Origin: Magnetococcales bacterium
Lineage (GTDB): Bacteria; Pseudomonadota; Magnetococcia; Magnetococcales; JADGCL01
Assembly: GCA_015229005.1 (NCBI GenBank)
Contig: JADGCL010000001.1
Location: forward strand, 50,216-114,215
Direction: 5' to 3'
Length of the DNA: 64,000 nucleotides
Positions 5,034-53,047 of the stretch are shown piece after piece. Below the pieces are notes generated by a model. It did not search any database. It was not told where the DNA came from and worked only from the letters and a program-made list of their open reading frames with translations. Position 1 is the stretch's first letter, and every line of letters begins with the position of its first letter. The position numbers were made by a program, and so were the translations under genes.

Positions 5034-6146
5034 TCAACCCGGAAGGATGGGGGAGGGGTGCCACCGGCGGATCCATCCTCCCCCGAGCATCCGCCTCTCA
5101 CGATAGAAGACGCAGGCCTGACCGGGGGTGATCGCCCGTTCCCTCTTCTCGAAGCGGACCCGTGCGCACCCCTCCGCGCCTGGTTCGACCCAGGCGGGAA
5201 CGGCTGGTGAAGCGTAGCGGACCCGTGCCTCGATGCGAATGGGAGCAACCAGGGGGGTGTCGTCGATCCAGTTGACACCCTCCAGCTCCAGCGATTCCCC
5301 CTGGAGTGCCTCCTCGGGGCCGACGATCAGGCGGTTTCCGATGGGATCGATCGCCACCACATAGAGGGGGTGGGGAGAGGCGATCCCCAGGCCGCGACGT
5401 TGACCGATGGTGTAGAGGCCGATCCCCCGGTGTTGTCCCAGGCGGCGTCCGCTCAGCTCTTCTATCGGTCCCGGTCGCATGGCGTGAGGCTGGTGGCGGG
5501 CAAAAAAATCCGCATAATCGCCCCCGGGGACAAAACAGAGATCCTGACTTTCGCGCTTTTCGGCCACTGGCAGCGCCAATCGGGCGGCCAGCCGGCGGGT
5601 CTCGTCCTTGGTCAGCTCCCCCACGGGAAAGTGGAGCCGGCGCATCTGGTTTGCCGTCAGGGTAAAGAGGAAATAGGACTGATCCTTGCGGGGATCAACC
5701 CCGCGGAGAAGCCGCGGAATCTCCCTCCCCGTTCGTTCGAGGATGGCGTAATGTCCGGTGGCCAGGGCCGTGGCGCCGAGGCTTTGTACCCTCTCCAGGA
5801 GGATGGTGAACTTGAGAAATTGATTGCAGCGGATGCAGGGGTTCGGGGTTTCCCCCTCCTGGTAACGGTCTATGAAATCGTCGACGACGTGGTGTCGAAA
5901 GGCCGCCTCCAAATCGATCACGGTAAAGGGGATGTCGAGGCAGTCGGCAACTCTCCGGGCATCTTCGAGATCGCGGCTCCCGCAGCAGGCACGATTCCCA
6001 TCCGCACCGGAATCCGCCACGCTCCCGTCCCAGAGCCGCATCGTTACGCCAAAGACCTCGTAACCCTGGGCCTGGAGTCTGGCCGCGGCGACTGCGGAAT
6101 CGACCCCACCCGATAGGGCCACGGCCACCCGTTCGGTGCTGCTCAA
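5034..6146 (-). CDS. mnmA: tRNA 2-thiouridine(34) synthase
   Basis: VAVALSGGVDSAVAA is a PP-loop. CCGSRDLEDARRVADCLDIPF, NPCIRCN and KDQSYFL are canonical MnmA motifs. Confidence 0.9.
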   Translation of the reverse strand: MSSTERVAVALSGGVDSAVAAARLQAQGYEVFGVTMRLWDGSVADSGADGNRACCGSRDLEDARRVADCLDIPFTVIDLEAAFRHHVVDDFIDRYQEGETPNPCIRCNQFLKFTILLERVQSLGATALATGHYAILERTGREIPRLLRGVDPRKDQSYFLFTLTANQMRRLHFPVGELTKDETRRLAARLALPVAEKRESQDLCFVPGGDYADFFARHQPHAMRPGPIEELSGRRLGQHRGIGLYTIGQRRGLGIASPHPLYVVAIDPIGNRLIVGPEEALQGESLELEGVNWIDDTPLVAPIRIEARVRYASPAVPAWVEPGAEGCARVRFEKRERAITPGQACVFYRERRMLGGGWIRRWHPSPILPG

Positions 6147-7348: not shown

Positions 7349-8514
7349 GGCTCTTCTCCCTGGGCCGTTTCGGGTGGATCTCCGGCTCCGACCATGACTC
7401 TACTCAGCTCCCGGCGCATGCAGGTCACCTGACGGCGGCGTTCCGGATCGTAACGGTGCCACTTGGCATCAGGGACCTCGCCTCGGGAAACCGGTCGAAA
7501 ACCGTGGCGTCGAAAAAAATCGACCACCCGCAGATGCGTGGTCACCGCAAAGAGATAGGACAGCCCCGAGCGGGCGCCATCCTCGACGATCCGCTTCAAG
7601 AGGTAGCCGCCGATCCCTTCGCCCTTGAACCGGGTCAAGGCATAGATCCCGGCGATCTCCCCGGCCCTCTCCTCCCGGTAGGGGGTGGTGAGGAGTGCCG
7701 CCAATCCGGCCAGGAAGCCGTCACCGATGAAGGCGCCGTACCCGGAGAGAATCAGTCGTGCTGAATCCTCCGGGCTTCGAGGCAGGAGAAACCCCTCCTT
7801 CTCGCCGCGGCGGATAAGGGCCATGACCGCCGGGGCGTCGTCCCATCCCAAGGGTCTGACCCGGCAATAGTGATGCCGGGAAAAGAAAGTGCCGCTCCCC
7901 TCGAAAGTGAAGAGTTCCCGACCGACCTCTCCCAACCGGCAGAGACTGACGGCCTCGACTCCCCCATCCAGCATTGCCCGGATCGATGTCAGGAACTCCT
8001 GTTGCCGCGCCGCGCCGTTCCCTGTTTCGGGTACCAGGGGTGAATCGGCCAGTTGGGCCGGGTTGAGATAACTGATGAACCTGCCCGAACCATTCGTGAG
8101 ACCTCCGGTGGCCGCCAGGACGATCACCCGGGGCAGCCTCAGCGCAATGGCTGCTGCTGAGGCTGTTGCGAGAAAAGAGTTCGACGGTGCCCCAGCCAGG
8201 GTTACTGCATGAAGCATCGGCGAACCGTGCCTCCAAAGGACCGCCGCCAGGGCCGGATGGGAACTCTCGGGAAGAAGACGGATTGCAGCCCCAGGCAGCA
8301 GCGAGAACTTTTCCCCGACCCAGGAGATGACCCGAGCGTCGTCCGGATGCAGCACCAGCACCCGGACTCCCGCCTTGACCAGTTCGTCGACGACCGCCGC
8401 GAAGCCTTCCGACCCACTCTCTCCGAGACCGCTCTCCTCACCCAGGAAAAAGGTCAGGGTATGGCCGCGAAAGGCACGCAGGAAGAAGGATTTTTCCTCG
8501 AATGGGGTGACCAT
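7330..8514 (-). CDS. N-acetylglutamate-synthase-like protein (amino-acid-kinase fold plus GNAT)
   Basis: The N-terminus FLRAFRGHTLTFFLGE resembles ArgA. The C-terminal GNAT region reads GIYALTRFKGEGIGGYLLKRIVEDGARSGLSYLFAVT. Start taken at MVTPFEE (8514); the track ORF extends to 8643. Confidence 0.6.
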   Translation of the reverse strand: MVTPFEEKSFFLRAFRGHTLTFFLGEESGLGESGSEGFAAVVDELVKAGVRVLVLHPDDARVISWVGEKFSLLPGAAIRLLPESSHPALAAVLWRHGSPMLHAVTLAGAPSNSFLATASAAAIALRLPRVIVLAATGGLTNGSGRFISYLNPAQLADSPLVPETGNGAARQQEFLTSIRAMLDGGVEAVSLCRLGEVGRELFTFEGSGTFFSRHHYCRVRPLGWDDAPAVMALIRRGEKEGFLLPRSPEDSARLILSGYGAFIGDGFLAGLAALLTTPYREERAGEIAGIYALTRFKGEGIGGYLLKRIVEDGARSGLSYLFAVTTHLRVVDFFRRHGFRPVSRGEVPDAKWHRYDPERRRQVTCMRRELSRVMVGAGDPPETAQGEEPCLNTR

Positions 8515-42604: not shown

Positions 42605-43154
42605 TCCGGGACCGCCGCAGTTGAGAGATCACCACCGGGTCGTCGTCCCCATCCCAATCCACACCCGAATCCGTCCGGGTACTCCGTGCCACACACATGG
42701 TGCCAGGCGCTGTCAGCAATTCCCGGGCCGTGCGATTATTTCGATCATTATCAAGGAAATCAATCCGGTATCCCGGACCGGGCAACGAATGAGAAGCTGC
42801 CATGGTGAACAATAATTGGTCAGCATGCCCGCTCATTGGGCAATGCTGGCATGGAATGCCCAATAAATCGCCACCCACCGAAGCGGTGGTACCGGTGTCG
42901 TAGCCGTGGAAGCCATTGCACCGGAGTTGTTCTCCGTTTATAGTGCCGGGTCCCGAGGGGAGGGTCATCAGCGGCGCATCTTCTCCGGTCGGGTCGTCGT
43001 GGTCCGGTTCGCCGGTTTTCGTCGGATCTGGCCTCGATCACCGCTGTTTACTCCCCTTCCCCTCCACTATGTCGGGATACCCTGGGCCTTTCCCGTCCGA
43101 GGCCGGACGGGCTTGTCGTCGGCCCTTGTCAGCCCTCAGGTTTCAGGAGTCGCC

Positions 43155-44111
43155 ATGTCGGACGTAATGATCGAGATGACGGAGATCAGCCGCTTCTTCG
43201 GTCCCACCCGGGCCCTGGCGGGGGTCAACCTCCAGGTTAAACGCGGCGAGGTGGTCGGCTTTCTCGGCCCCAACGGCGCCGGCAAGACCACCGCCATGCG
43301 CATCCTGGCCGGGATCCTCGCCCCCACCTCCGGCGGCGCCCGGGTCGCCGGGATCGACCTTCTCTCTGATCCGGTCGAGGCGAAGGCCAAGGTCGGCTAT
43401 CTCCCGGAGAGTCCTCCGATCTATGCCGACATGTCCGTCCGCGAATATCTTGCCTATCTGGCCTCTCTGCGCCGCGTCCCGCGCAAGCGCCGGCGGGATG
43501 CCGTCGACCGGGCCATGACCCGGTGCGGCCTGGATCACGTCGCCGATCGTCTCCTGGGCAATCTCTCCAAGGGTTACCGGCAACGGGCCGGGATCGCCCA
43601 GGCCATTGTCCACGACCCGCAGGTGGTGATCCTCGATGAACCTACTGTCGGCCTCGATCCCATCCAGATTCGGGAAATCCGTGAGCTGATTCGCAATCTC
43701 GGGGGGGAGCACTCGGTCCTCCTCTCCACCCATATTCTCCCCGAGGTGCAGATGACCTGCCATCGGGCCGTCCTGATCCACAACGGCACCATCGTCTCCG
43801 ACGACACCCTGGAGGGGCTGGAAAACCGTGCCAAGAGCGGTCATGAGCTCTTCGTCCGGCTGGCTCGCCCGCCCGAGGTCTCGGTTCTCAAGTCCCTTCC
43901 GGGCATCCGCCAGGTGGAGGCCCTCCGGGGGGGGTGGCGGATCCTCGTCGAGGCCGGCGCCAATCCGGCCGAGGCGCTGGTCAAGCGATCGGTCGAGGAG
44001 AACTGGGGGTTGAGCGAGTTGACCCCGGCCTCCCACTCCCTCGAAGAAGTCTTCGTCAATCTCACGACCCGCGAGCCGCAGGCGGTCGCTGTCCAGGAGA
44101 GTGCCCAATGA
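43155..44111 (+). CDS. ABC transporter ATP-binding protein (GldA-like)
   Basis: GPNGAGKTT, LSKGYRQR, LDEPTVGLD and STH are present. AGGAG RBS. The track ORF start at 42906 is an upstream extension. Confidence 0.85.
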   Translation: MSDVMIEMTEISRFFGPTRALAGVNLQVKRGEVVGFLGPNGAGKTTAMRILAGILAPTSGGARVAGIDLLSDPVEAKAKVGYLPESPPIYADMSVREYLAYLASLRRVPRKRRRDAVDRAMTRCGLDHVADRLLGNLSKGYRQRAGIAQAIVHDPQVVILDEPTVGLDPIQIREIRELIRNLGGEHSVLLSTHILPEVQMTCHRAVLIHNGTIVSDDTLEGLENRAKSGHELFVRLARPPEVSVLKSLPGIRQVEALRGGWRILVEAGANPAEALVKRSVEENWGLSELTPASHSLEEVFVNLTTREPQAVAVQESAQ

Positions 44112-44875
44112 AACCGATCGTTGCCATCGCCCTCCGCGAATGGCGGAGCATGTTCCTGTCGCCGTTGGCCTGGACCCTCCTGGCCGTTCTTTTCGCCATC
44201 ACCTCCTGGATGTTCAGCGCCGCGACGCGCCTGTACCAGATTCAGCAGATGCAGTTTCAGGCCTTCGGCGGCGGCGGGGCCTCCCTGACCGACTCGACGG
44301 TGGCGCCGATGTTGGGCAATGCCGCGGTGCTTCTCCTCCTGATCAGCCCCCTCCTGACGATGCGCCTCATCGCCGAGGAGAAGCGGCGCGAGACCTGGCC
44401 GGCGGTCGCCTCGTCGCCGCTTTCGCCGATGCAGATTCTATTGGGCAAGTATTTCGGCCTCCTGCTCTTTCTGGCCGTTACGGTGGGACTCCTCGCCATC
44501 CCGCCGCTCCTCCTCTTCGCGTATGGTTCCCCGGATGGCGGCCAGATCTTCTCCGGCCTCCTCGGTCTCTTCCTGGTCGCCGCGACCTTCGGCGCCGTCG
44601 GTCTTGCCGCTTCCGCCGCTACCGACAACCCCATCGTGGCCGCCGTCATCAGCTTCGGCGTCCTCCTCTCCCTCTGGATCGCCTCCTGGATGGGCGAGGC
44701 GGGGGGCACGGACACCGTCGACCAGGTGTTGGCCTACATCTCCCTGACCGGCCACTACGAGAAATTCCTGACCGGGGTCATCTCCAGCGCCGATCTGGCC
44801 TATTTCGTCATCGTCTCCCTTCTGGCCCTGGTCGCTGCGCGCTACCGGCTGATGGCCGAACGGGTCCGGGGTTGA
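44108..44875 (+). CDS. ABC-2 type permease (GldF-like)
   Basis: Multi-TM protein whose start MKPIVAIALREWRSMFLSPLAW is typical. ATGA overlap with the ATPase gene. Confidence 0.75.
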   Translation: MKPIVAIALREWRSMFLSPLAWTLLAVLFAITSWMFSAATRLYQIQQMQFQAFGGGGASLTDSTVAPMLGNAAVLLLLISPLLTMRLIAEEKRRETWPAVASSPLSPMQILLGKYFGLLLFLAVTVGLLAIPPLLLFAYGSPDGGQIFSGLLGLFLVAATFGAVGLAASAATDNPIVAAVISFGVLLSLWIASWMGEAGGTDTVDQVLAYISLTGHYEKFLTGVISSADLAYFVIVSLLALVAARYRLMAERVRG

Positions 44876-44905
44876 GCATTTTTTGCGACTGGGGAGATAT
44901 CGTCC

Positions 44906-46288
44906 ATGGAAATGAATCGTTCCACGCGCCTGAACTTCAGGACCCAGAACCTCGTTCTGGGGTTGTTACTGGCCGCCATCCTGGGGGTCGCGGCCTATGC
45001 CACCCACCGTTACCAGGTCCGCTGGGATCTGACCGCCAACAATCGCCACAGCCTCGCGGAACAGTCGGTCAAGGCGGTTCAGGCCTTCCCGGAGGGGGTG
45101 GCGCTCACCGTCTACGTCCAGGACAAGGGCGAACAGAAACAGGGAATCCTCGAACTCCTGGAACGCTATCGGGTGGAAAACACCAAGTTGACCATCCGGT
45201 TCGTCGATCCTGACCTCGACCCGGCTGCGGCCCGCCGCGAGGATGTCGCCGTCTACGGGACGGTGGTCCTGAGAAACGGCGAAAAGTCCGAAAAGGTGAC
45301 GGAGGTCACCGAGGAAAACATCACCAACGCCCTGATCCGTCTCTCCAAGGGGTCGGCAAAGGTGGTCAGGATGGTCTCCGGCCACGGCGAACACCCGTTC
45401 GAGGAGTCCGCCCCCGCTCCCGGCATGCCTGGCCAGCAGGCCAGCCGACAGAGCTACAACACGGTCGTCACCCTCCTCAAGGGGGAGGGGTATCGTGTCG
45501 AGAAGCTCAACCTGGCCGAAGTGGAGGCCGTTCCGGAGGAGACGGGGCTGGTGGTCCTGGCCGGGGCTCAGGGGCCTCTGTTTCCCGTCGAGGTGGAGAG
45601 GCTCACCCAGTGGTTCGGCAAGGATGGACGCCTCCTCCTGCTCCTCGAACCCGGGATCAACACTGGCCTGGAGCCCTTCCTCGCCGACCAGGGAATCACG
45701 CCGCTCGCCGGCACGGTCATCGACCCGACCGCCCGCCTCTTCGGCGCCGGGGTCACCACCCCCCTGATCACCCGATATGACGCCAGCCATCCGATCACCA
45801 AGGGGATGAGCGATGCCTCGTTCTTCCCGGAGGCCGTGGCCCTGGAGCTGCAACCGTCGGATTCCCGGAAGGAGGGTTCGCCGCAGCGGACGCGCCTCCT
45901 GACCGGGGCTGATCGCGGCTGGTTGGAGGTCGGTTCCCTGGCGGGGGGTTCGGTCGAGTTCAACGCGGGGGAGGACAAGCAGGGGCCTCTGCTCCTGGGG
46001 GTCGCCACCGAGGCTGAGAAGCGGCGTCTGGTGGTGATCGGTGACTCCGATTTCGCCGCCGATGCCTATGTCGACTTTTCCGGCAACAGCCGGCTCGTCC
46101 TCAACGCGGTCCGCTGGCTGGCCGCCGACGAAAATTTCATCGCCATCAAGCCGAAGCCGGTCACCGACGGTGGCCTCGTCCTCTCCGGTATCGACGCCAT
46201 CATCCTCTCCTGGGGGCTTGTGGCGGTGATCCCTCTCCTCCTCGTCGGGACGGGGCTCACGCTCTGGCTGCGGCGGAAGCGTCGCTGA
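44906..46288 (+). CDS. GldG-like ABC-system auxiliary protein
   Basis: N- and C-terminal TM anchors flank a large periplasmic domain, and the protein ends WLRRKRR. It follows the gldA/gldF-like genes. Confidence 0.7.
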   Translation: MEMNRSTRLNFRTQNLVLGLLLAAILGVAAYATHRYQVRWDLTANNRHSLAEQSVKAVQAFPEGVALTVYVQDKGEQKQGILELLERYRVENTKLTIRFVDPDLDPAAARREDVAVYGTVVLRNGEKSEKVTEVTEENITNALIRLSKGSAKVVRMVSGHGEHPFEESAPAPGMPGQQASRQSYNTVVTLLKGEGYRVEKLNLAEVEAVPEETGLVVLAGAQGPLFPVEVERLTQWFGKDGRLLLLLEPGINTGLEPFLADQGITPLAGTVIDPTARLFGAGVTTPLITRYDASHPITKGMSDASFFPEAVALELQPSDSRKEGSPQRTRLLTGADRGWLEVGSLAGGSVEFNAGEDKQGPLLLGVATEAEKRRLVVIGDSDFAADAYVDFSGNSRLVLNAVRWLAADENFIAIKPKPVTDGGLVLSGIDAIILSWGLVAVIPLLLVGTGLTLWLRRKRR

Positions 46289-46316
46289 ACGGCATCGGCT
46301 GAAGGAGGCATGCGCC

Positions 46317-47759
46317 ATGGTCAAAGGCTGGTGGGTCAATCTCTTCCTTCTCGCGGTTCTGCTTGCGGGGGGCGGGGGTCTGTGGTGGGCCGATCGTGAA
46401 GAGGCGGCACGCCAGGAGGCCGATACGGCCTTCCGCAAGGTCTCTTCCTGGCCGGTCGAGGCCCCGGTTCGGATGGAGTTTCGCGACGAGAAGGATGCCA
46501 TTGCCGTCCTGATCCGGGAGGGTGGCTCCTGGCGCCTGGCCGAGCCGGTCGCGGCCCCTGCGGACGAGGGGGCCGGGAAGCGGCTGGTCGAGGTTTTGCA
46601 GGCCACCTACGAACGGGTGGCGGCGCCGGCGCCGGTGGCGGACGTCGCCCCCTTCGGGCTGAATCCCCCGAAGGCCAAACTTTCCCTGGTCGACGACAAG
46701 AGTCAGGAACTCGTCCTTCTCCTCGGCGAGAAGAGTCCGACCGGGGGCAAGCGCTACCTGCGCATCGGCGAGGAGGGGCCGGTCGTGCTGGTCGACGAGA
46801 CGAGTGTCGCCGGCATGACCCAATCCCTGGACGAACTGCGTGACAAGCGGCTCCTGCCGGGCCTGACCGCCGATCGTGTTGCCGGCGTCACCCTGATCCG
46901 CGGGGAGGGTGTCCTGACCCTGGAGAAGGCGCAGGAGGGCGGGGGGTGGCAGCTTCTTTCGCCGTGGACCACGCCCGCCTCCGCGACCCGGGTCTCCGCC
47001 TGGATCGGCGGTCTGGTCGAGACCCGGGGATCCAGTTTCGAGGCCGTTTCCCCGCCGGCCAACCCTGATTGGCGCCTTGCCCTGACCGATTCGGCCAAGG
47101 CGATCCGCACCCTCGATCTCTGGCGGCGGGGGGAGCAGATCCTGGCCCGGGGGAGTGATTCTCCCGATGCCATGGTGCTTTATTCCTATCTTGGTCGCGA
47201 TCTCGACAAGAAGGCGCTGGAGTTGGTCTCTCTGGCTCCCTGGGAGACTCCGGACAAGGATCCAGAGTCCCTGGCTGTGACCCTGAAGGAAGAGACCCTG
47301 AAGAGTGACCCCAAGGAGGCCTCCTGGCAACAGCCGGGGTGGCAGGCGCTGCGTGATTTCCTCAAGCAGGAGGGACAGCAGGGGGTCGAACCCGAGGATC
47401 GGGGTCCCCCGTGGGTGAAGGTGGGCCTCGAGGGCTCCCGGGAACTCTCCCTCTGGAAGAGTGGGAAGGGGGATGAGGCGACCGCCTGGCTTGCGGTGAG
47501 TGACCGGCCTTACCACATTCAGTTGAGCCGGGCCCAGCTCATGGCCCTGGAGGAGGCCGTGACCCGCCTCTTTCCCTCTGCCGGGGGGGAGACGCCGCCC
47601 GTGTCCGACGGGGCCTCTGCCGCTGAGGAGCCGACCAGCGGCGAATCGCCGGCGACGACGGAGAGCGGCGCTCTCCCCGGGGAGGGGGAGAGGCTCCAGG
47701 TTGAGGAGATCCCGCCCGTCTCCTCCGGGGCCGATACGGCATCTCCCACTTCCCAATAG
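46317..47759 (+). CDS. DUF4340-like protein
   Basis: An N-terminal anchor is followed by a beta-rich repeat body. The position after the gldG-like gene is the usual context for DUF4340. AAGGAGG RBS. Confidence 0.55.
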   Translation: MVKGWWVNLFLLAVLLAGGGGLWWADREEAARQEADTAFRKVSSWPVEAPVRMEFRDEKDAIAVLIREGGSWRLAEPVAAPADEGAGKRLVEVLQATYERVAAPAPVADVAPFGLNPPKAKLSLVDDKSQELVLLLGEKSPTGGKRYLRIGEEGPVVLVDETSVAGMTQSLDELRDKRLLPGLTADRVAGVTLIRGEGVLTLEKAQEGGGWQLLSPWTTPASATRVSAWIGGLVETRGSSFEAVSPPANPDWRLALTDSAKAIRTLDLWRRGEQILARGSDSPDAMVLYSYLGRDLDKKALELVSLAPWETPDKDPESLAVTLKEETLKSDPKEASWQQPGWQALRDFLKQEGQQGVEPEDRGPPWVKVGLEGSRELSLWKSGKGDEATAWLAVSDRPYHIQLSRAQLMALEEAVTRLFPSAGGETPPVSDGASAAEEPTSGESPATTESGALPGEGERLQVEEIPPVSSGADTASPTSQ

Positions 47760-47917
47760 GGGCTGGGGGGGCCGGGGGGAGGCTCTGCCGCCCCCTCGGG
47801 CTCCCCCAACCACCATTAATATTACTTTTCTTTGTTGATTTTTGTTCGGTCTCGGCCAATCCGATCAAGAGTTCCGGTTTTGTACTTCGGTAACCGCTTG
47901 TCTTTTCTGGAGATAGT

Positions 47918-49363
47918 TCAGGGCGGGGAGACCTCCGGCGTCACCAGCGGTCCCACCTTGTCGAAAAGCGTGACCACGCCGTCGTCCCAGCCATCCCAGA
48001 GGAAATCGTCGGCGATGCCGTCGGCAATCAAGCGGAAGGCGTAGCGGGTCTGTTCCTCGTAGAAGGCACAAAAGGCCCCGGGACGATCCATTCCCCCGTT
48101 CATTTCGTGGGCCTCCGCCGGGCAGGGTGATCCACAGAAATGGCGGATGGCGCATCGCCGGCAGGGGTCGATGGTCTCTACCGTCCGACCCGTGACCCGG
48201 TGAAAGGCTGGACTGGTCAAGGCTGCATCCAGACCTCCGGCAAAGAGGTTGCCACCGCGAAAGGAGTCCAGACCGATAAATTCACTGCAGGGAAAAAGGT
48301 CGCCGTTGGCCGCCAGGGCGAAGAAGGCCCGACCACCACCACAGGGGGAGATGTCGCACATCAGCCTTCTCGCGGTGGGGGCCAGGATCGCGAGGAGGAT
48401 GTTGGCAAAATTGGCGACCACCAGTTTGCGTCCGCTCTGCCGGAAGAGTTCATGACTCCTCTCCAGTGCGGCGATGAACGGAGTTGCCGCCTCTTCGTCG
48501 GCCAGACGCACCTCCCGAGCCGCCGGCAGGGTGCATCGGGTCATGTTGAGCAGGCAGTTGGGAACCTGGCGTTCGTGGAGAAACTCCACCATTTGCGGCA
48601 ATTCGCTGGCATTTTCCCGGGTCACGGTTACGATAACGCTGTAGTAAGGGTAGCCAGCGAGGCGCTCCATTGCCTCCAGAACCTTTGCATGGACGTTGAG
48701 GTTTCCTGCCCAGGATTTTCGGGTTCGATGGGTCGTCTCGGCCCGAATACCATCCAGGGAGAGTCCGATGCTGACCCCCCGGGAGGTGAGAAAATCCACC
48801 GCCTCGCCATCCAGGAGGGTCGCATTGGTCTGGACGCCGAAATCGAACTCGTTGTTGTAAGCGGCAATGCCCGCAAAGAGCGCCTCCTTGTTGAGGAGGG
48901 GTTCGGCGCCGTGGAAGATGACCCTTGGCCGACGCGAGGGCGGCAGGGTCTTGGCAAAGTGGCCTTGCAGAAGACGCAACGCCTCCAACAGCTTCTCTCG
49001 ACTCATCTCCGTTCCGTGCCTGCGCATGGTTTGCGGGATGTAGCAGTAGGAACAGTCGAGATTGCATCGGTCCGTCGGATTGAAATAGACCGCAGAGGGC
49101 TGGAGGCCGAACCTCAGGGTTTGCATCTCTTCCTGGAACGATGCCCGCTTCTGGTGAAAGGAAGTCAGGAGTTCCCCTCCTTCCAGGGCGTCCGCCAGGC
49201 GATCCTTGTGAACCAGGGCCCAGAAGGCCGTATCGGGATCCACCAGTCCCATATAAGCTGGGTGACCGATGTCCAACGGCAACAGGGTCGGTCCCTCACC
49301 GGTGTTGAGATGTGATCCGCTTGGCCGGTTTCCCGCATCCCGGGAGGCGTGCGTCACGGCCAT
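47918..49363 (-). CDS. radical SAM/SPASM-domain peptide-modifying enzyme
   Basis: CNLDCSYCY is the CX3CX2C motif. The C-terminal CDISPCGGG...LFPCSEF...DPCRRCAIRHFCGSPCPAEA carries the SPASM auxiliary-cluster cysteines. About 100 aa precede the SAM cluster. Confidence 0.85.
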   Translation of the reverse strand: MAVTHASRDAGNRPSGSHLNTGEGPTLLPLDIGHPAYMGLVDPDTAFWALVHKDRLADALEGGELLTSFHQKRASFQEEMQTLRFGLQPSAVYFNPTDRCNLDCSYCYIPQTMRRHGTEMSREKLLEALRLLQGHFAKTLPPSRRPRVIFHGAEPLLNKEALFAGIAAYNNEFDFGVQTNATLLDGEAVDFLTSRGVSIGLSLDGIRAETTHRTRKSWAGNLNVHAKVLEAMERLAGYPYYSVIVTVTRENASELPQMVEFLHERQVPNCLLNMTRCTLPAAREVRLADEEAATPFIAALERSHELFRQSGRKLVVANFANILLAILAPTARRLMCDISPCGGGRAFFALAANGDLFPCSEFIGLDSFRGGNLFAGGLDAALTSPAFHRVTGRTVETIDPCRRCAIRHFCGSPCPAEAHEMNGGMDRPGAFCAFYEEQTRYAFRLIADGIADDFLWDGWDDGVVTLFDKVGPLVTPEVSPP

Positions 49364-49518
49364 CAGTGCCCCTTTCGCTCGGTCAGGATGTAATGGGAGA
49401 GCCCCACGCCGTCGGCGGCGCAGCTCTTACGGGTGGCGATGACCTGGTCCTTCCGGGGGGCACGATGTTCCGGTGAGGGATTTTTGAGCATTGTTTTTTC
49501 AGGGGAAACAGGGTTCAT
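49363..49518 (-). CDS. 51-aa candidate precursor peptide
   Basis: MNPVSPEKTMLKNPSPEHRAPRKDQVIATRKSCAADGVGLSHYILTERKGH. GGAGGA lies 4 nt upstream of the ATG. The stop overlaps the rSAM start (TGATG). The 132-aa track version would run through the riboswitch and terminator. Confidence 0.6.
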   Translation of the reverse strand: MNPVSPEKTMLKNPSPEHRAPRKDQVIATRKSCAADGVGLSHYILTERKGH

Positions 49519-49545
49519 GACATCCTCCGTGGTTGGGTGTTGCGC

Positions 49546-49594
49546 AAAAAAAAAGGCCCCAGAGGAGCGGTGATGACACACCCACTCCCCTGGG
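49546..49594 (-). terminator. riboswitch expression-platform terminator
   Basis: On the minus strand, CCCAGGGGAG...CTCCTCTGGG forms a 10-bp stem with one G-U pair, followed by GCC and T9. The 5' arm overlaps an alternative GGGACC/GGTCCC hairpin. Confidence 0.75.
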
Positions 49595-49625
49595 ACCTTT
49601 TTCCATGGGGTCCCGGAAACGGCGT

Positions 49626-49780
49626 CCTTGCAACGTCTTCTGACTTTCCGGATCAACCGCAGGTCCCGCGCCTTCCCGCCGGATTTTCTCCGGCAGTGGC
49701 TGACTCGCGTCACGCGGACTGCGTCCCCGGTCACAGCGGCGGGACCGTCACGGATTGGCACCGTGTTCCGTTCTGCAAGG
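49626..49780 (-). promoter_or_regulatory. cobalamin (B12) riboswitch aptamer
   Basis: The minus strand reads CCUUGCAGAACGGAACACGGUGCCAAUCCGUGACGGUCCCGCCGCUGUGACC...AGCCACUGCCGGAGAAAAUCCGGCGGGAAGGC...AAGUCAGAAGACGUUGCAAGG. The conserved GGUGxxAAUCC, CCCGCCGCUGU, GCCACUG and GGGAAGGC blocks and a B12-box-like AGUCAGAAGAC are present. A P1 helix CCUUGCA/UGCAAGG closes the aptamer. Confidence 0.85.
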
Positions 49781-49797
49781 ACCCCTGACCGGCCCCG

Positions 49798-49827
49798 ATT
49801 ATCCGCACAAACGGGGCATCAAGGCAA
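49798..49827 (-). promoter_or_regulatory. candidate sigma70 promoter TTGCCT-N18-GATAAT upstream of the riboswitch
   Basis: Hexamers and spacing were read on the minus strand. The -10 element ends about 17 nt before P1. Confidence 0.4.
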
Positions 49828-50047
49828 TCCTTTTTCGCGATTGATGCTCTTGTCGTGGGGTCGCCCGAGCCGGCCAGGGATGCTCCGGGGCTTTGCCTCC
49901 GACTCGATGGGCCGGGGAATGGCTTTTTTCTTGGCGTGATCGAGACTGATGGAGGATAGCCTCCTTCCACTGGGAACGGTGGTAGAGTAGCATGTCCCCT
50001 CTTTTCCTGGCGTTTTTGGGCAGTGAATCGGCCTGCGGATAGGTGTT

Positions 50048-51706
50048 ATGACGAACTTGGGCGATTTGGAACATACCGTTCGCTATTTCCGGCAGATCCT
50101 GCTTTGGCCATTGCAACTCTTGCCCATGGCGGAGGAGGATGGTCGGCGTCATTGGCAGGTCCTGGAAGAGACCCAGGAGCGATCCGTGTGGCAACGGGTG
50201 GTCAATGAATTTGCCGACGCCAGCCGGGTCTCCCAGGAACAGTATTATAAAGAATTCGTGGTGTTCTTGCCGTATGTGCGGCGGTTTCTCTATGGTGAGA
50301 GCCGAGGTCCCTGGATCCATGATGAGAAGGATCCGGCCGGGGAGTCGGCGCTGAAGGTCTTTCGCCGCCGGGATGTCGCTGCCCTGCGCCTGGTATTGCG
50401 CACAGGAACGGCGCCGATCCTGCTGTCCGTCGATGGGGTCGAGTTGATCTTCTTCGACGACATCGATCTGGTCTTTCTCAAGGTCGAGATCAGCGCCACC
50501 GATCTTCTTCTGACAACCGTTCGGGAGATGCTCTACCGCTTCGGACGGGCCTATCCGACGAGTTGGAACGAGGCGGGCCAGGGAATCCATAATGTCCTCT
50601 CCGCAGAATGGTTGGGGACAGGGGGACAGGCGCTGGCGGCCTCGGATTCGGACAACCGGATGAAATTCCTGGCCTTCAGTTGCCAGCATCGGGCCCCTTG
50701 CACCTCGGCCCACTGGAGCTTTCTGCTTCAGCCCCTGGTCCCGGCGCCGGCAGTGGAAAAGGGATTGATCCGGTTTCATCAGGTGGAGTATCACCGGATA
50801 CCGATGATGGCCTATCTGGCGGTCGACGACCCCAGGAGCATCACCCGGGATACCTGGTTGCGGTTGGGCATGATCGCCTCGCTGCATCCCGACGAGCCGA
50901 TCCCCCGGAATGACCCCGATGTTTTCGGATTCGAGTCGCATTACTGTTATGATCGCTATTGGACCGATACCGAGGCCGGTCCGAACAGTCGGTTCCTCTG
51001 CAGCGGTCGGGTGCTGCTTGTGGTGGGGGATGCGCGGGAGAGTTATTTCATCAATGCCTACCGCGGGATGCTGGCCAAGTTTCGCCACCAGTATTTCATC
51101 GTCTTTCTCATCGCTCACCTCCATCGGGCTTCCCTCCTGATTTTTTCGGACCGCCTGGTGGACGCCATCCACGACCTGGATATTCGGCAGGGCAACTCCG
51201 TTCGGACCTTCCGCCATCGGATCCATTTGAGTTTCGAGACCTTTCTGCGGTTTACCCATCGCTATTGGTTCCACAAGATTTCGGAGCGGGATGATATTCA
51301 GTCCCTCCTTGGGCTCTGCGGGAAATGGCTGGGCAATGACAGTCTGTACGAAGAGGTCAAGGAAGAGTTGTGGGACATGAGCCAGTATCTGGACAGCGAC
51401 ATGCAGCGGCGGCAGTCGAAAACAGTTGTGCAGTTGACGGTGGTCACCGCTTTCAGTCTGATCGGAACGATCGCCACCGGCATTTTGGGGATGAACATCA
51501 TCGACGAAACGGGCGCACCCTTTTGGGTTCGCTGGGGCTACTTCTTCCTGACGGTGGTAGTCTCGGCAACGATCATGCTCCTCACGGTGACCAAATCACG
51601 GTGGCTGTGGGACATGATGGAGATCATCTCGGACAATCGGCTGTCGATGCGGGCACGACTTCGGCAAATCTTCCAGACCAAGGAAAACCCCGGGAAAACG
51701 CACTAG
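50048..51706 (+). CDS. CorA-like (GMN-motif) divalent-cation channel family protein with a long N-terminal domain
   Basis: The C-terminal TGILGMNIID lies between two TM helices, as in the CorA signature. The soluble region of about 450 aa is longer than in classical CorA. Confidence 0.6.
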   Translation: MTNLGDLEHTVRYFRQILLWPLQLLPMAEEDGRRHWQVLEETQERSVWQRVVNEFADASRVSQEQYYKEFVVFLPYVRRFLYGESRGPWIHDEKDPAGESALKVFRRRDVAALRLVLRTGTAPILLSVDGVELIFFDDIDLVFLKVEISATDLLLTTVREMLYRFGRAYPTSWNEAGQGIHNVLSAEWLGTGGQALAASDSDNRMKFLAFSCQHRAPCTSAHWSFLLQPLVPAPAVEKGLIRFHQVEYHRIPMMAYLAVDDPRSITRDTWLRLGMIASLHPDEPIPRNDPDVFGFESHYCYDRYWTDTEAGPNSRFLCSGRVLLVVGDARESYFINAYRGMLAKFRHQYFIVFLIAHLHRASLLIFSDRLVDAIHDLDIRQGNSVRTFRHRIHLSFETFLRFTHRYWFHKISERDDIQSLLGLCGKWLGNDSLYEEVKEELWDMSQYLDSDMQRRQSKTVVQLTVVTAFSLIGTIATGILGMNIIDETGAPFWVRWGYFFLTVVVSATIMLLTVTKSRWLWDMMEIISDNRLSMRARLRQIFQTKENPGKTH

Positions 51707-51982: not shown

Positions 51983-53047
51983 TCAGCCGCGTTCCTTGAT
52001 CCAAGCGGCGATCCCGGGGGGGACCTCCTTCTTGGAGCGACCACTGGTGAAGAGTCCGATGTGCCCGCCGCCGAAGGAGAGTTCCGAATAATCCTTGGAA
52101 CCGATGAGATCCTTCAGCTTGAGGGTGGAGGAGGGGGGAACCAGGTGGTCCTTGGTGGCATAGACGTTGAGAACCGGCATCGTGATCCGGGAAGGATCCA
52201 CCGTCTTGCCGCCGATCTTGAGGCCGCCCTTGACCAGACCATTCTGCTGGTAGAAAAACTTGACGAACTGCCGGAAGGCTTCACCGGCCTGGTCCGGACT
52301 GTCCGCGACCCATTTCTCCATGCGCAGGAAGTTCAGGAGGGTCTTCTGGTCCTCGAGGAAGTCGATCATCTTCATGTACTTGTGACCGTCCGAGAAGACC
52401 GAGCGCATGGAAGCGAAGGCGGTATTCAGCATGGTACCAGGCACATTGCCGACGGCATCCACCAGGGCGTCCACATCCATGCCCTTGGCCCACTTGCCGA
52501 AGAGATTCTCACCGGCATGGAAGTCGATGGGGGTGACGGTCAGCACGAGATTCCGGATCCGATCGGGATTGATCGAGGTGTAGCAGGTACTCAGGGTTCC
52601 GCCCTGACAGATCCCGAGCAGGTTGATCCGATAGAGCCCGTGACGCTCGCAGATTTCTTCCACGCAGTGGTGGATGTAGCTGTTGATGTAATCGTCGAGT
52701 TCCAGGAAACGATCTGCCCGATCCGGGTATCCCCAGTCGACGAGATAGACCTCGAGCCCTTCTTCCAGGAGGCCGCGGATGAGCGAGCGATCGGGTTGGA
52801 GATCGGCCACGTAGGGACGATTGACCAGGGCGTAGACCACCAGGACTGGAATCCGGTGGGGGGTCTCGACGAGCGGGCTGTACCGATAGAGGGTCATCTT
52901 GTCCTCATGGTAGACCGCGTCCTTCTTGCAGAGGCCGACATCGACCTCGCCGAGCTTTTCCAGCGCCTGAATACCCTTGGCGAACTTCTGATTGAATTGG
53001 ACCAGCTCCTGCGCTGCCTGGTCCGGTCTGATGGCGATAGGATTCAT
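51983..53047 (-). CDS. phaC: class III poly(R)-hydroxyalkanoate synthase, PhaC subunit
   Basis: The length (354 aa) fits class III. LLGICQGG is a lipase-box-like motif carrying the catalytic Cys. A PhaE gene lies next to it. Confidence 0.9.
   Translation of the reverse strand: MNPIAIRPDQAAQELVQFNQKFAKGIQALEKLGEVDVGLCKKDAVYHEDKMTLYRYSPLVETPHRIPVLVVYALVNRPYVADLQPDRSLIRGLLEEGLEVYLVDWGYPDRADRFLELDDYINSYIHHCVEEICERHGLYRINLLGICQGGTLSTCYTSINPDRIRNLVLTVTPIDFHAGENLFGKWAKGMDVDALVDAVGNVPGTMLNTAFASMRSVFSDGHKYMKMIDFLEDQKTLLNFLRMEKWVADSPDQAGEAFRQFVKFFYQQNGLVKGGLKIGGKTVDPSRITMPVLNVYATKDHLVPPSSTLKLKDLIGSKDYSELSFGGGHIGLFTSGRSKKEVPPGIAAWIKERG

Follow-up and report, generated by a model that had tools for sequence, protein, structure and literature searches.

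A cobalamin riboswitch followed by the genes for a small peptide and for a radical S-adenosylmethionine (SAM) enzyme raises two questions: whether the peptide is made when corrinoids are scarce or when they are present, and what it would then do. Such a locus was analyzed in a 64-kb stretch of DNA from a Magnetococcales bacterium; this whole stretch is called the window, and all positions refer to it unless another locus is named. A genuine cbpA-cbpB operon is present, self-contained and part of the cobamide (vitamin B12) regulon of this bacterium; its parts are, in order, a canonical cobalamin aptamer, a strong intrinsic terminator, cbpA and the translationally coupled cbpB. The overall best explanation, to which we assign a probability of about 0.55, is that the riboswitch would act as an ON switch and that cbpAB would serve the lower-ligand branch of cobamide synthesis or deal with corrinoid intermediates. 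An earlier note on this DNA had described a cobalamin-riboswitch-gated operon of a small peptide and a radical SAM/SPASM maturase, and every element that it listed was found in its place. The elements, all on the minus strand, are as follows (ORF, open reading frame).

49827-49822 and 49803-49798, minus strand: candidate sigma-70-like promoter (UUGCCU, 18 nt, GAUAAU), from a consensus scan
49824-49613, minus strand: cobalamin riboswitch aptamer RF00174, from Rfam cmscan
49614-49592, minus strand: P13-like hairpin (GGGACC, loop CCAUGGAAAAA, GGUCCC), from folding and covariation
49599-49546, minus strand: intrinsic terminator, stem plus U9, from folding and covariation
49528-49523, minus strand: ribosome-binding site (RBS) GGAGGA, 4 nt ahead of the cbpA ATG (49518), from direct reading of the sequence
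49518-49363, minus strand: cbpA, ORF for a 51-aa precursor peptide, TIGR04164 match
49363-47918, minus strand: cbpB, 481-aa radical SAM/SPASM peptide maturase, TIGR04163 match; its start overlaps the cbpA stop (TGATG)

The cbpA-cbpB operon and its conservation

RF00174 was the only Rfam family detected across the entire window, and it matched with 75.1 bits (gathering cut-off 31.5, E = 1.1e-16) over the full model (1-189 of 189), which bears out the riboswitch of the earlier note; with a custom covariance model, R1, the window aptamer scored 144.8 bits. The P1 helix, quoted before as 7 bp, is present and is longer, with 9 bp (GUCCUUGCA at 49782-49774 paired with UGCAAGGAC at 49632-49624). L5 is UCCCG (49744-49740), the L5 consensus in corrinoid riboswitches (PMC10327014), and the B12 box is AGUCAGAAGAC (49645-49635). 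Within the box, CAGAAGAC (window 49641-49635) is present in 13 of the 14 seed aptamers of R1 (alignment A2), the exception being locus L010 with CAGAAGGC. The Rfam consensus of the B12 box is CAGGAGAC, i.e., there is a G-to-A change in the cbpA-linked class, and this change could be a class signature bearing on ligand selectivity.

The family name rSAM_cobopep/CbpB, which the earlier note had suggested, proved to be real. The 481-aa ORF matched TIGR04163 (rSAM_cobopep, peptide-modifying radical SAM enzyme CbpB) with 669.9 bits (cut-off 375, E = 1.3e-201), and the 51-aa ORF matched its partner TIGR04164 (cobo_pep, modified peptide precursor CbpA) with 45 bits (cut-off 35, E = 5.5e-12). The runner-up families of CbpB fell below their cut-offs (PapB 126.7 vs 340; SCIFF maturase 80.9 vs 425; StsB 62.8 vs 625), and the mycofactocin maturase model gave 56 bits vs 265. 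With the Pfam models the Radical_SAM assignment stood (68 bits), whereas SPASM, with 20.8 bits, came slightly under its cut-off of 21.5. The aptamer and both protein matches are far beyond chance, and the GGAGGA RBS, the 51-codon ORF and the TGATG overlap with the 481-aa enzyme were confirmed from the sequence. An NCBI protein of a Magnetococcales metagenome-assembled genome, already named CbpB, matches the window CbpB with 100% identity, so that the CbpA/CbpB pairing is already catalogued; the window pair is a member of this NCBIfam family, which is defined in silico only, and keeps its peptide-then-maturase order. A literature search found no paper on the TIGR04163/TIGR04164 family, its peptide motif, chemistry, function or regulation. 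The family names and the pairing (TIGR04163/TIGR04164) were known already; what is new here is the predicted ON sign.

In CbpB the radical SAM motif CX3CX2C is C100/C104/C107, the SPASM cysteines, a complete set, are C341-X12-G-X4-C359, C401-X2-C404-X5-C410-X3-C414 and C432, plus C336, and all 13 cysteines of the window protein are invariant in 20 diverse homologues. An AlphaFold (AF2) model of CbpB (predicted local distance difference test, pLDDT, 76.9; predicted template modelling score, pTM, 0.82) is nearest to CteB (Foldseek E = 4e-16, ~460 columns including the N-terminal domain), followed by anSME, TigE, ChlB, SuiB and SkfB, and a profile search of PDB sequences agrees (CteB 1e-31, anSME 1e-27). 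Residues 28-85 are modelled as a strand-and-helix domain where CteB has its peptide-recognition element. CbpB is a radical SAM/SPASM enzyme of the type acting on peptides that ribosomes make and that are modified after translation (RiPPs), with an N-terminal domain at the position of the CteB recognition element; the resemblance in fold shows only that CbpB works like a peptide radical SAM/SPASM maturase, and with the sactipeptide/ranthipeptide (thioether) maturase models it stays below the cut-offs.

SCIFF/CteB (CteB being a sactipeptide-type thioether synthase, PDB 5WGG/5WHY) is the closest system to CbpB both in solved structure and in sequence, and it likewise combines a short, highly conserved peptide with one radical SAM/SPASM partner, and has neither further tailoring genes nor a known function. 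It differs in that CteB is ~19% identical to CbpB, in that CbpA has one invariant Cys vs six, and in that SCIFF has no riboswitch or B12 linkage. PqqA/PqqE and MftA/MftC are alike in logic only, i.e., a small and very conserved precursor, a radical SAM/SPASM enzyme and an intracellular metabolic role, but they need further enzymes (PqqB-F, MftB/D/E/F), none of which lies beside cbpAB.

The conserved C-terminal module of the window CbpA is VIATRKSCAADGVGLSHYILTERKGH. Across the family this C-terminal module (~26 aa) reads V-I-A-x-R-K-x-C-x-A-x-G-[TV]-G-L-S-H-Y-I-L-M-D-[KR]-K-x-K, with R, C, G, G, L and H invariant in 77 unique CbpA cores, and the N-terminus is Lys-rich and variable. Four precursors carry two tandem modules that are 6-16 residues apart (L008 5531-5962, L026 2078-2464, L029 5483-5968 and L038 5771-5968), which indicates that each 26-aa module is recognised individually.

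A profile built from 20 diverse CbpB sequences found relatives in up to 555 species genomes among the matches listed, and 80 loci were kept. The CbpB proteins of the profile are 59-73% identical to that of the window, over phyla that include Pseudomonadota, Myxococcota, Planctomycetota, Chloroflexota, Nitrospinota and Verrucomicrobiota, which makes CbpA/CbpB one of the most conserved peptide-maturase pairs. With a custom CbpA hidden Markov model, a CbpA homologue was found immediately upstream of cbpB in 78 of the 80 loci, the two misses having <205 nt of upstream sequence; this model replaced a strict 'C..DG' peptide motif, which matched just 23 of the 80 loci. By Rfam, a same-strand RF00174 match lies just upstream in 14 of the 15 loci tested, and these 14 loci were used to build R1. 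Four loci were too short to judge, and of the 76 evaluable ones 62 carry a same-strand R1 aptamer upstream of cbpA. The short ORF and the riboswitch are therefore retained upstream of the orthologues, as the earlier note would have it, and riboswitch, peptide and maturase are conserved together over many phyla.

The expression platform and the sign of regulation

The terminator of the window had been described with a 10-bp stem. It is present, with U9 at 49554-49546, and its stem comprises 18 contiguous bp (AAGGUCCCAGGGGAGUGG at 49599-49582 with CCGCUCCUCUGGGGCCUU at 49570-49553), which gives a hairpin of -37.7 kcal/mol. The P13 hairpin (-8.9 kcal/mol) is formed by GGGACC (49614-49609) and GGUCCC (49597-49592). 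Since the latter serves both as the P13 3′ strand and as the 5′ base of the terminator, with zero spacing and complete overlap of P13, the two structures are mutually exclusive. The competition between the 5′ arm of the terminator and an alternative hairpin, already noticed in the sequence, was thus upheld, the alternative being a conserved and co-varying P13 whose 3′ strand lies wholly within the terminator. The order of the family platform is P1, an A-rich linker, P13 (GGAAUC, loop (C/G/A)AUGG(U/C/A)AAA, GGGUUCC) and the remainder of the long terminator, with its 3′ base GGAACCC and then the U-run; in the window the three strands are changed in concert (GGGACC, GGUCCC and GGGGCC). Family-wide, P13 has 6-10 bp and a loop of 9-11 nt, (C/G/A)A(U/C)GG(U/C/A)AA(A/G), and its whole 3′ strand is within the 5′ arm of the terminator in nearly all parsed leaders.

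In 40 aligned platforms P13 showed 17 double-change cells vs 7.7 in shuffles (0 of 500 shuffles reached 17), and the terminator base, which is 95.9% paired and has double changes in 12 of its 14 pairs, showed 73 such cells vs 21.8 (0 of 500 shuffles reached 73), both statistics ignoring phylogenetic relatedness, which is to be set against the reading that they serve. When the energies of cognate and non-cognate duplexes were compared, p values of 7.5e-9 for P13 and 7.6e-9 for the terminator arms were obtained. For the P1 3′ strand, the linker, the aptamer body and the 5′ leader, no cognate-specific pairing was observed, either with an arm of the terminator or with the 5′ strand of P13. An antiterminator made of the P1 3′ strand, the linker or the aptamer body and either terminator arm was rejected for want of a cognate signal, and so was an anti-antiterminator made of the P13 5′ strand and a segment 5′ of P1, a segment that is the 5′ strand of the 9-bp P1 and shows no cognate-specific pairing. 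Given the compensatory changes, the cognate energies and the lack of specific pairing of the other segments, P13 is the only conserved, co-varying alternative to the terminator. Its mean energy across the family is -6.9 kcal/mol and that of the terminator -30.8 kcal/mol, and therefore P13 cannot win unaided. In its loop the GG never varies and follows a U or a C in every case, YGG being complementary to the invariant CCG of L5; in the window, CCAUGGAAAAA is the L13 candidate, and its UGGA is complementary to U-C-C-(C)-G of L5.

Nearly all the corrinoid riboswitches characterised so far repress (PMC10327014). In a repressing riboswitch, as analyzed by compensatory mutagenesis, P13 is separate from the terminator and there is a distinct antiterminator (Procknow et al. 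2023, PMC10327014/PMC10653944). A single activating one is known, that of Alkalihalobacillus (A.) halodurans cobT, which is induced by cobinamide; in it, P13 is stabilised by the kissing loop and is itself the antiterminator, and its 3′ strand is also the 5′ strand of the terminator (PMC10327014/PMC10653944). A literature search yielded nothing relevant on later activating corrinoid riboswitches beyond Procknow et al. RNAfold of the A. halodurans platform alone misses the published P13, and the numbered mutations of the paper were mapped instead onto the Table S1 sequence (PMC10653944), so that P13 is U165-G169 with C180-A184, L13 is CAUGGCAUAC and C181:G200 is a terminator pair.

The cbpA platform and that of A. 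halodurans cobT are alike in that the P13 3′ strand doubles as the 5′ arm of the terminator, in that there is no separate antiterminator, in that the class of the cbpA platform is also found before cobT, and in an L13 of ~10 nt that carries AUGG(C/U/A)A and is complementary to an NCCCG-type L5. The loop motif AUGGNA, common to both, is missing from three validated repressing platforms. The two differ in the aptamer, which is a more canonical RF00174 in the case of cbpA (standard GGUGC-AAUCC L4) whereas the L4 region of A. halodurans is unusual, in the length of P13 (6-10 bp for cbpA vs 5) and of the terminator (12-20 bp vs 9), and in the downstream genes, which here are cbpAB, with activation and ligand (cobinamide?) predicted. 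The repressing P. megaterium metE and S. ovata cobT riboswitches (PMC10653944) share with cbpA the aptamer family, the L5 UCCCG consensus and the read-out by an intrinsic terminator, but they have a separate P13 and an antiterminator formed by the 3′ side of P13 together with the terminator's 5′ side. In a strict automated test for the P13-in-terminator layout, 47 of the 62 cbpA-linked riboswitches passed, and all 11 other cobalamin riboswitches of these loci failed. The repressing-type layout is absent from the window; it is present in the divergent riboswitches of L066, L056, L055, L016 and L052. In L066 two cobalamin riboswitches stand back to back (5311-5498, minus strand, and 5565-5751, plus strand), as they do in the other four; the riboswitch that drives cobC/cobT/cobS/cobQ keeps its P13 (CCUUC-GAGG-GAAGG) apart from an independent terminator, and in the one on the cbpAB side P13 overlaps the terminator.

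The riboswitch is judged to be real and transcriptional, and an ON sign roughly twice as likely as an OFF sign, because the P13/terminator layout and the loop match those of the validated activating A. halodurans cobT and because no conventional antiterminator was found. By this analogy, the control that the earlier note had proposed (repression by B12, with the peptide made at corrinoid scarcity) is not supported, since a P13 within the terminator is a layout of the activating type. Control would be exerted by transcription termination. In the absence of ligand, the terminator of about -31 kcal/mol would displace the weak P13 (about -7 kcal/mol, family mean) and transcription would end before cbpA; with a corrinoid bound, L5 (UCCCG) would kiss the conserved L13 loop (AUGG...) and lock P13, which would then withhold the 5′ base of the terminator and allow read-through into cbpAB. 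For an experimenter, the ON prediction indicates what to add (cobinamide or cobalamin) in order to see the product.

Cobamide genes and the possible role of CbpAB

Fourteen of the evaluable loci have no adjacent riboswitch, and in 10 of them cbpAB is embedded in cbi/cob operons (CbiA, CbiC, CbiD, CbiM, CbiX, CobQ or methylase genes), i.e., cbpAB without a riboswitch of its own usually lies inside such operons. In L019 and L021 an RF00174 match is found ~3 kb upstream, heading the operon, the order in L021 being riboswitch, cbiM...cbiO, cbpA, cbpB and cbiX. At least one B12 or cobalt gene lies within 6 kb in 32 of the 80 loci. The only recurrent neighbours obtained by ORF clustering are cobamide or cobalt genes, namely CbiA/CobB, CobQ(+CobD), corrin methylases, CbiG, CbiC, CbiD, CbiB, CobS, CobT, CbiM and CbiX, and the remaining clustered ones are generic ABC ATPases and signalling proteins. 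On the same strand, cbpB is followed by cobT in 4 loci, by CbiX in 5 and by CbiM in 3. The next gene is on the opposite strand in 27 loci, which indicates that cbpAB is usually a self-contained operon. The link to corrinoid metabolism, which had been surmised from the riboswitch, was strongly borne out by these neighbourhoods, and cbpAB is firmly tied to cobamide metabolism.

The same platform is found ahead of other genes. A metagenome scan by platform motif, in which hits were kept only if an R1 aptamer was directly upstream, gave at least 19 instances among the matches listed. Downstream of these 19 are cobT (8), cbpAB (5), ThiC-family radical SAM genes (3), cobS (1) and DUF1329/DUF1302 genes (1), the remaining one being truncated; btuB, early cbi genes, metE and nrd are downstream of none of them. 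The ThiC-family genes (L105 2415-3734, L086 1638-2658 and L110 1-738) pass the ThiC model and fail the BzaB model (499.6 bits vs 700), and they are probably bzaF-like 5-hydroxybenzimidazole synthases. Hazra and colleagues are said to have discovered the bza lower-ligand genes, in 2015, by way of a cobalamin riboswitch ahead of a thiC paralogue. Because the instances precede cobT, cobS and ThiC-family genes, and because cobT follows cbpB in four loci, the riboswitch/platform class looks dedicated to the lower-ligand/nucleotide-loop branch, which is also the branch of the validated activating switch. In L127 (1-2683, minus strand) the same class stands before the DUF1329 and DUF1302 genes, whose link to cobamides is not known.

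The likeliest logic of the ON switch would be a feed-forward induction by an incomplete corrinoid. We infer this from the genes that stand behind the platform class (cobT, cobS and ThiC/BzaF-like genes) and from the response of the validated activator to cobinamide; such an induction would also reconcile the loci in which cbpAB is co-transcribed with de novo cbi genes. CbpB would modify the invariant, Cys- and His-containing module of CbpA, with a thioether or a C-C cross-link as the nearest chemical precedent, and the product would have an intracellular place, either in the lower-ligand/nucleotide-loop branch or where corrinoid intermediates are handled. By analogy with the other genes of the class, a role of cbpAB in the lower-ligand branch is plausible.

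A bolder proposal, which we put forward tentatively, is that riboswitches activated by corrinoids form a widespread class, as yet unrecognised, which is dedicated to lower-ligand/nucleotide-loop genes (cobT, cobS, bzaF-like thiC paralogues and cbpAB) and to which the cbpA leader belongs, and that CbpAB is a missing peptide component of this branch in anaerobes, induced by cobinamide-type intermediates; CbpAB might then make, carry or present a lower-ligand base, or handle incomplete corrinoids. If the ON sign is true, activating corrinoid riboswitches would form a broad natural class governing lower-ligand genes, and that of A. halodurans would not be a one-off; the reading of B12 regulons in annotation and in models of corrinoid cross-feeding would change, and many natural parts for corrinoid biosensors would become available.

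The alternative that survives best, though we find it appreciably less probable than the ON-switch model, is a conventional OFF switch, in which corrinoid would favour the terminator and the short hairpin would antiterminate when no ligand is bound; CbpAB would then be made at B12 scarcity and aid early synthesis, e.g., by passing cobalt from CbiMNQO to the CbiX/CbiK chelatase. Such a switch would conform to the rule that nearly all characterised corrinoid riboswitches repress (PMC10327014), and it agrees with the presence of cbpAB within de novo cbi operons in 10 loci, e.g., L021, and of CbiX or CbiM directly after cbpB in 8. In addition, the P13 5′ strand of the window holds CGGGA, a perfect complement of L5, which could sequester this strand and free the terminator. 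However, neither a ligand-dependent partner of the P13 5′ strand nor another antiterminator with cognate-specific pairing was found in the family, a hairpin of about -7 kcal/mol alone cannot hold off a terminator of about -31 kcal/mol, the strong conservation of the loop is left unexplained, and the platform class stands before no classic repressed gene among the matches listed. The CGG of the P13 5′ strand is not conserved either: its third position is G or A, and pair 6:26 is GC in 23 cases, AU in 9 and GU in 7. This third base co-varies with the P13 3′ strand and is therefore a stem position, so that 'CGGRA' was rejected as the true L5 partner family-wide, with a caveat for the window.

Several points weigh against the ON-switch model and against the role that it assigns to CbpAB. 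The ON sign would follow from an architectural rule taken from one natural riboswitch plus synthetic designs. The CGGGA of the window (49615-49611) is identical to L13 of the repressing P. megaterium riboswitch, and an OFF mechanism in which L5 captures this strand is conceivable in the window. The evidence for the kissing of L5 and L13 is their invariant complementarity, in which covariation is not demonstrable because the bases do not vary. An additional N:N' pair between the two loops is pairable in 20 of 43 cases vs 17.9 expected (P = 0.13); this fourth kissing-loop pair, in which the first L5 base would meet the base that follows GG in L13, was suggestive (G-C 10, A-U 8), yet it was rejected as non-significant. 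The platform sample from the metagenomes is biased by the motif and limited to the matches listed. In the 10 loci in which cbpAB is co-transcribed with de novo cbi genes, if those operons are repressed by B12, an ON response of the other loci to complete B12 would not be consistent with them in physiological terms, and since the aptamer is canonical, selectivity for incomplete corrinoids is only a guess. In L075 the riboswitch before cbpA is of the same type as that before cbiA: this locus has two copies (5216-5389 and 7572-7745, 74.4 bits each), one before cbpA and the other between cbpB and cbiA, and both are of another type, with neither the AUGG loop nor an obvious terminator, which makes them an exception to the platform rule. 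Finally, gene adjacency points also to the cobalt step (CbiM, CbiX), beyond the lower-ligand branch, and the choice of this branch over cobalt delivery to CbiX/CbiK, being guilt by association, is weak.

That CbpAB makes an ordinary secreted RiPP, i.e., an antimicrobial or a cobalt- or corrinoid-scavenging metallophore that is regulated by B12 without having an intracellular cobamide role, is improbable. The modelled structure of CbpB is that of a typical RiPP maturase (closest to CteB, TigE, ChlB, SuiB and SkfB), tandem cores such as those of the four precursors occur in some RiPPs, and the invariant Cys and His could bind metal. Nevertheless, no conserved protease, exporter or receptor gene was found beside cbpAB in the 80 loci, in which the recurrent neighbours are cobamide and cobalt genes, and this lack of a transporter or protease speaks against a scavenger that is secreted. 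Over many phyla the 26-aa module hardly varies and CbpB is 59-73% identical, which fits housekeeping or cofactor-type peptides, and a variable leader with a conserved core is the reverse of what is typical of RiPPs. As far as sequence comparison goes, the near-invariance of CbpA and this reversed pattern argue for a housekeeping-type product and not for a diversifying natural product.

Weakest of all is the view that the switch acts on translation or mRNA stability, or senses a non-corrinoid, the hairpin and the terminator being irrelevant: 8 of the 62 riboswitch-bearing loci have no clear U-run terminator (mostly GC-rich Anaeromyxobacteraceae with U3-4), but the other 54 have a strong stem and U-run equivalent to that of the window, ~50 nt past the aptamer, the RBS lies 20-60 nt beyond the terminator with no conserved sequestering helix, and the full-model RF00174 match includes the B12 box and L5.

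The promoter candidate and the adjoining genes

The sigma-70-like promoter that had been proposed for the operon is the sole match in a 2.7-kb scan (47500-50200), where 0.4 matches are expected by chance; UUGCCU and GAUAAU are thus in place, but as evidence for a promoter they are weak. From this candidate, transcription would begin a few nt ahead of P1.

Divergent from this region is an ORF of 552 aa (50048-51706, plus strand) with a weak C-terminal match to CorA (27.5 bits vs a cut-off of 27) that includes a GMN-type motif; its long N-terminal region matches no Pfam family. This CorA-like gene was considered as a functional partner and rejected, since it adjoins cbpAB in no other locus examined. 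Convergent with cbpB is a cluster at 42906-47759 (plus strand) that encodes an ATP-binding cassette (ABC) ATPase, a permease-like ORF, an ABC_transp_aux/DUF4350 (GldG-like) protein and a DUF4340 protein, and that appears unrelated to B12. Further upstream, an alpha/beta hydrolase of 354 aa (51983-53047, minus strand) has a match to the PhaC N-terminal domain and resembles a class III-type polyhydroxyalkanoate synthase.

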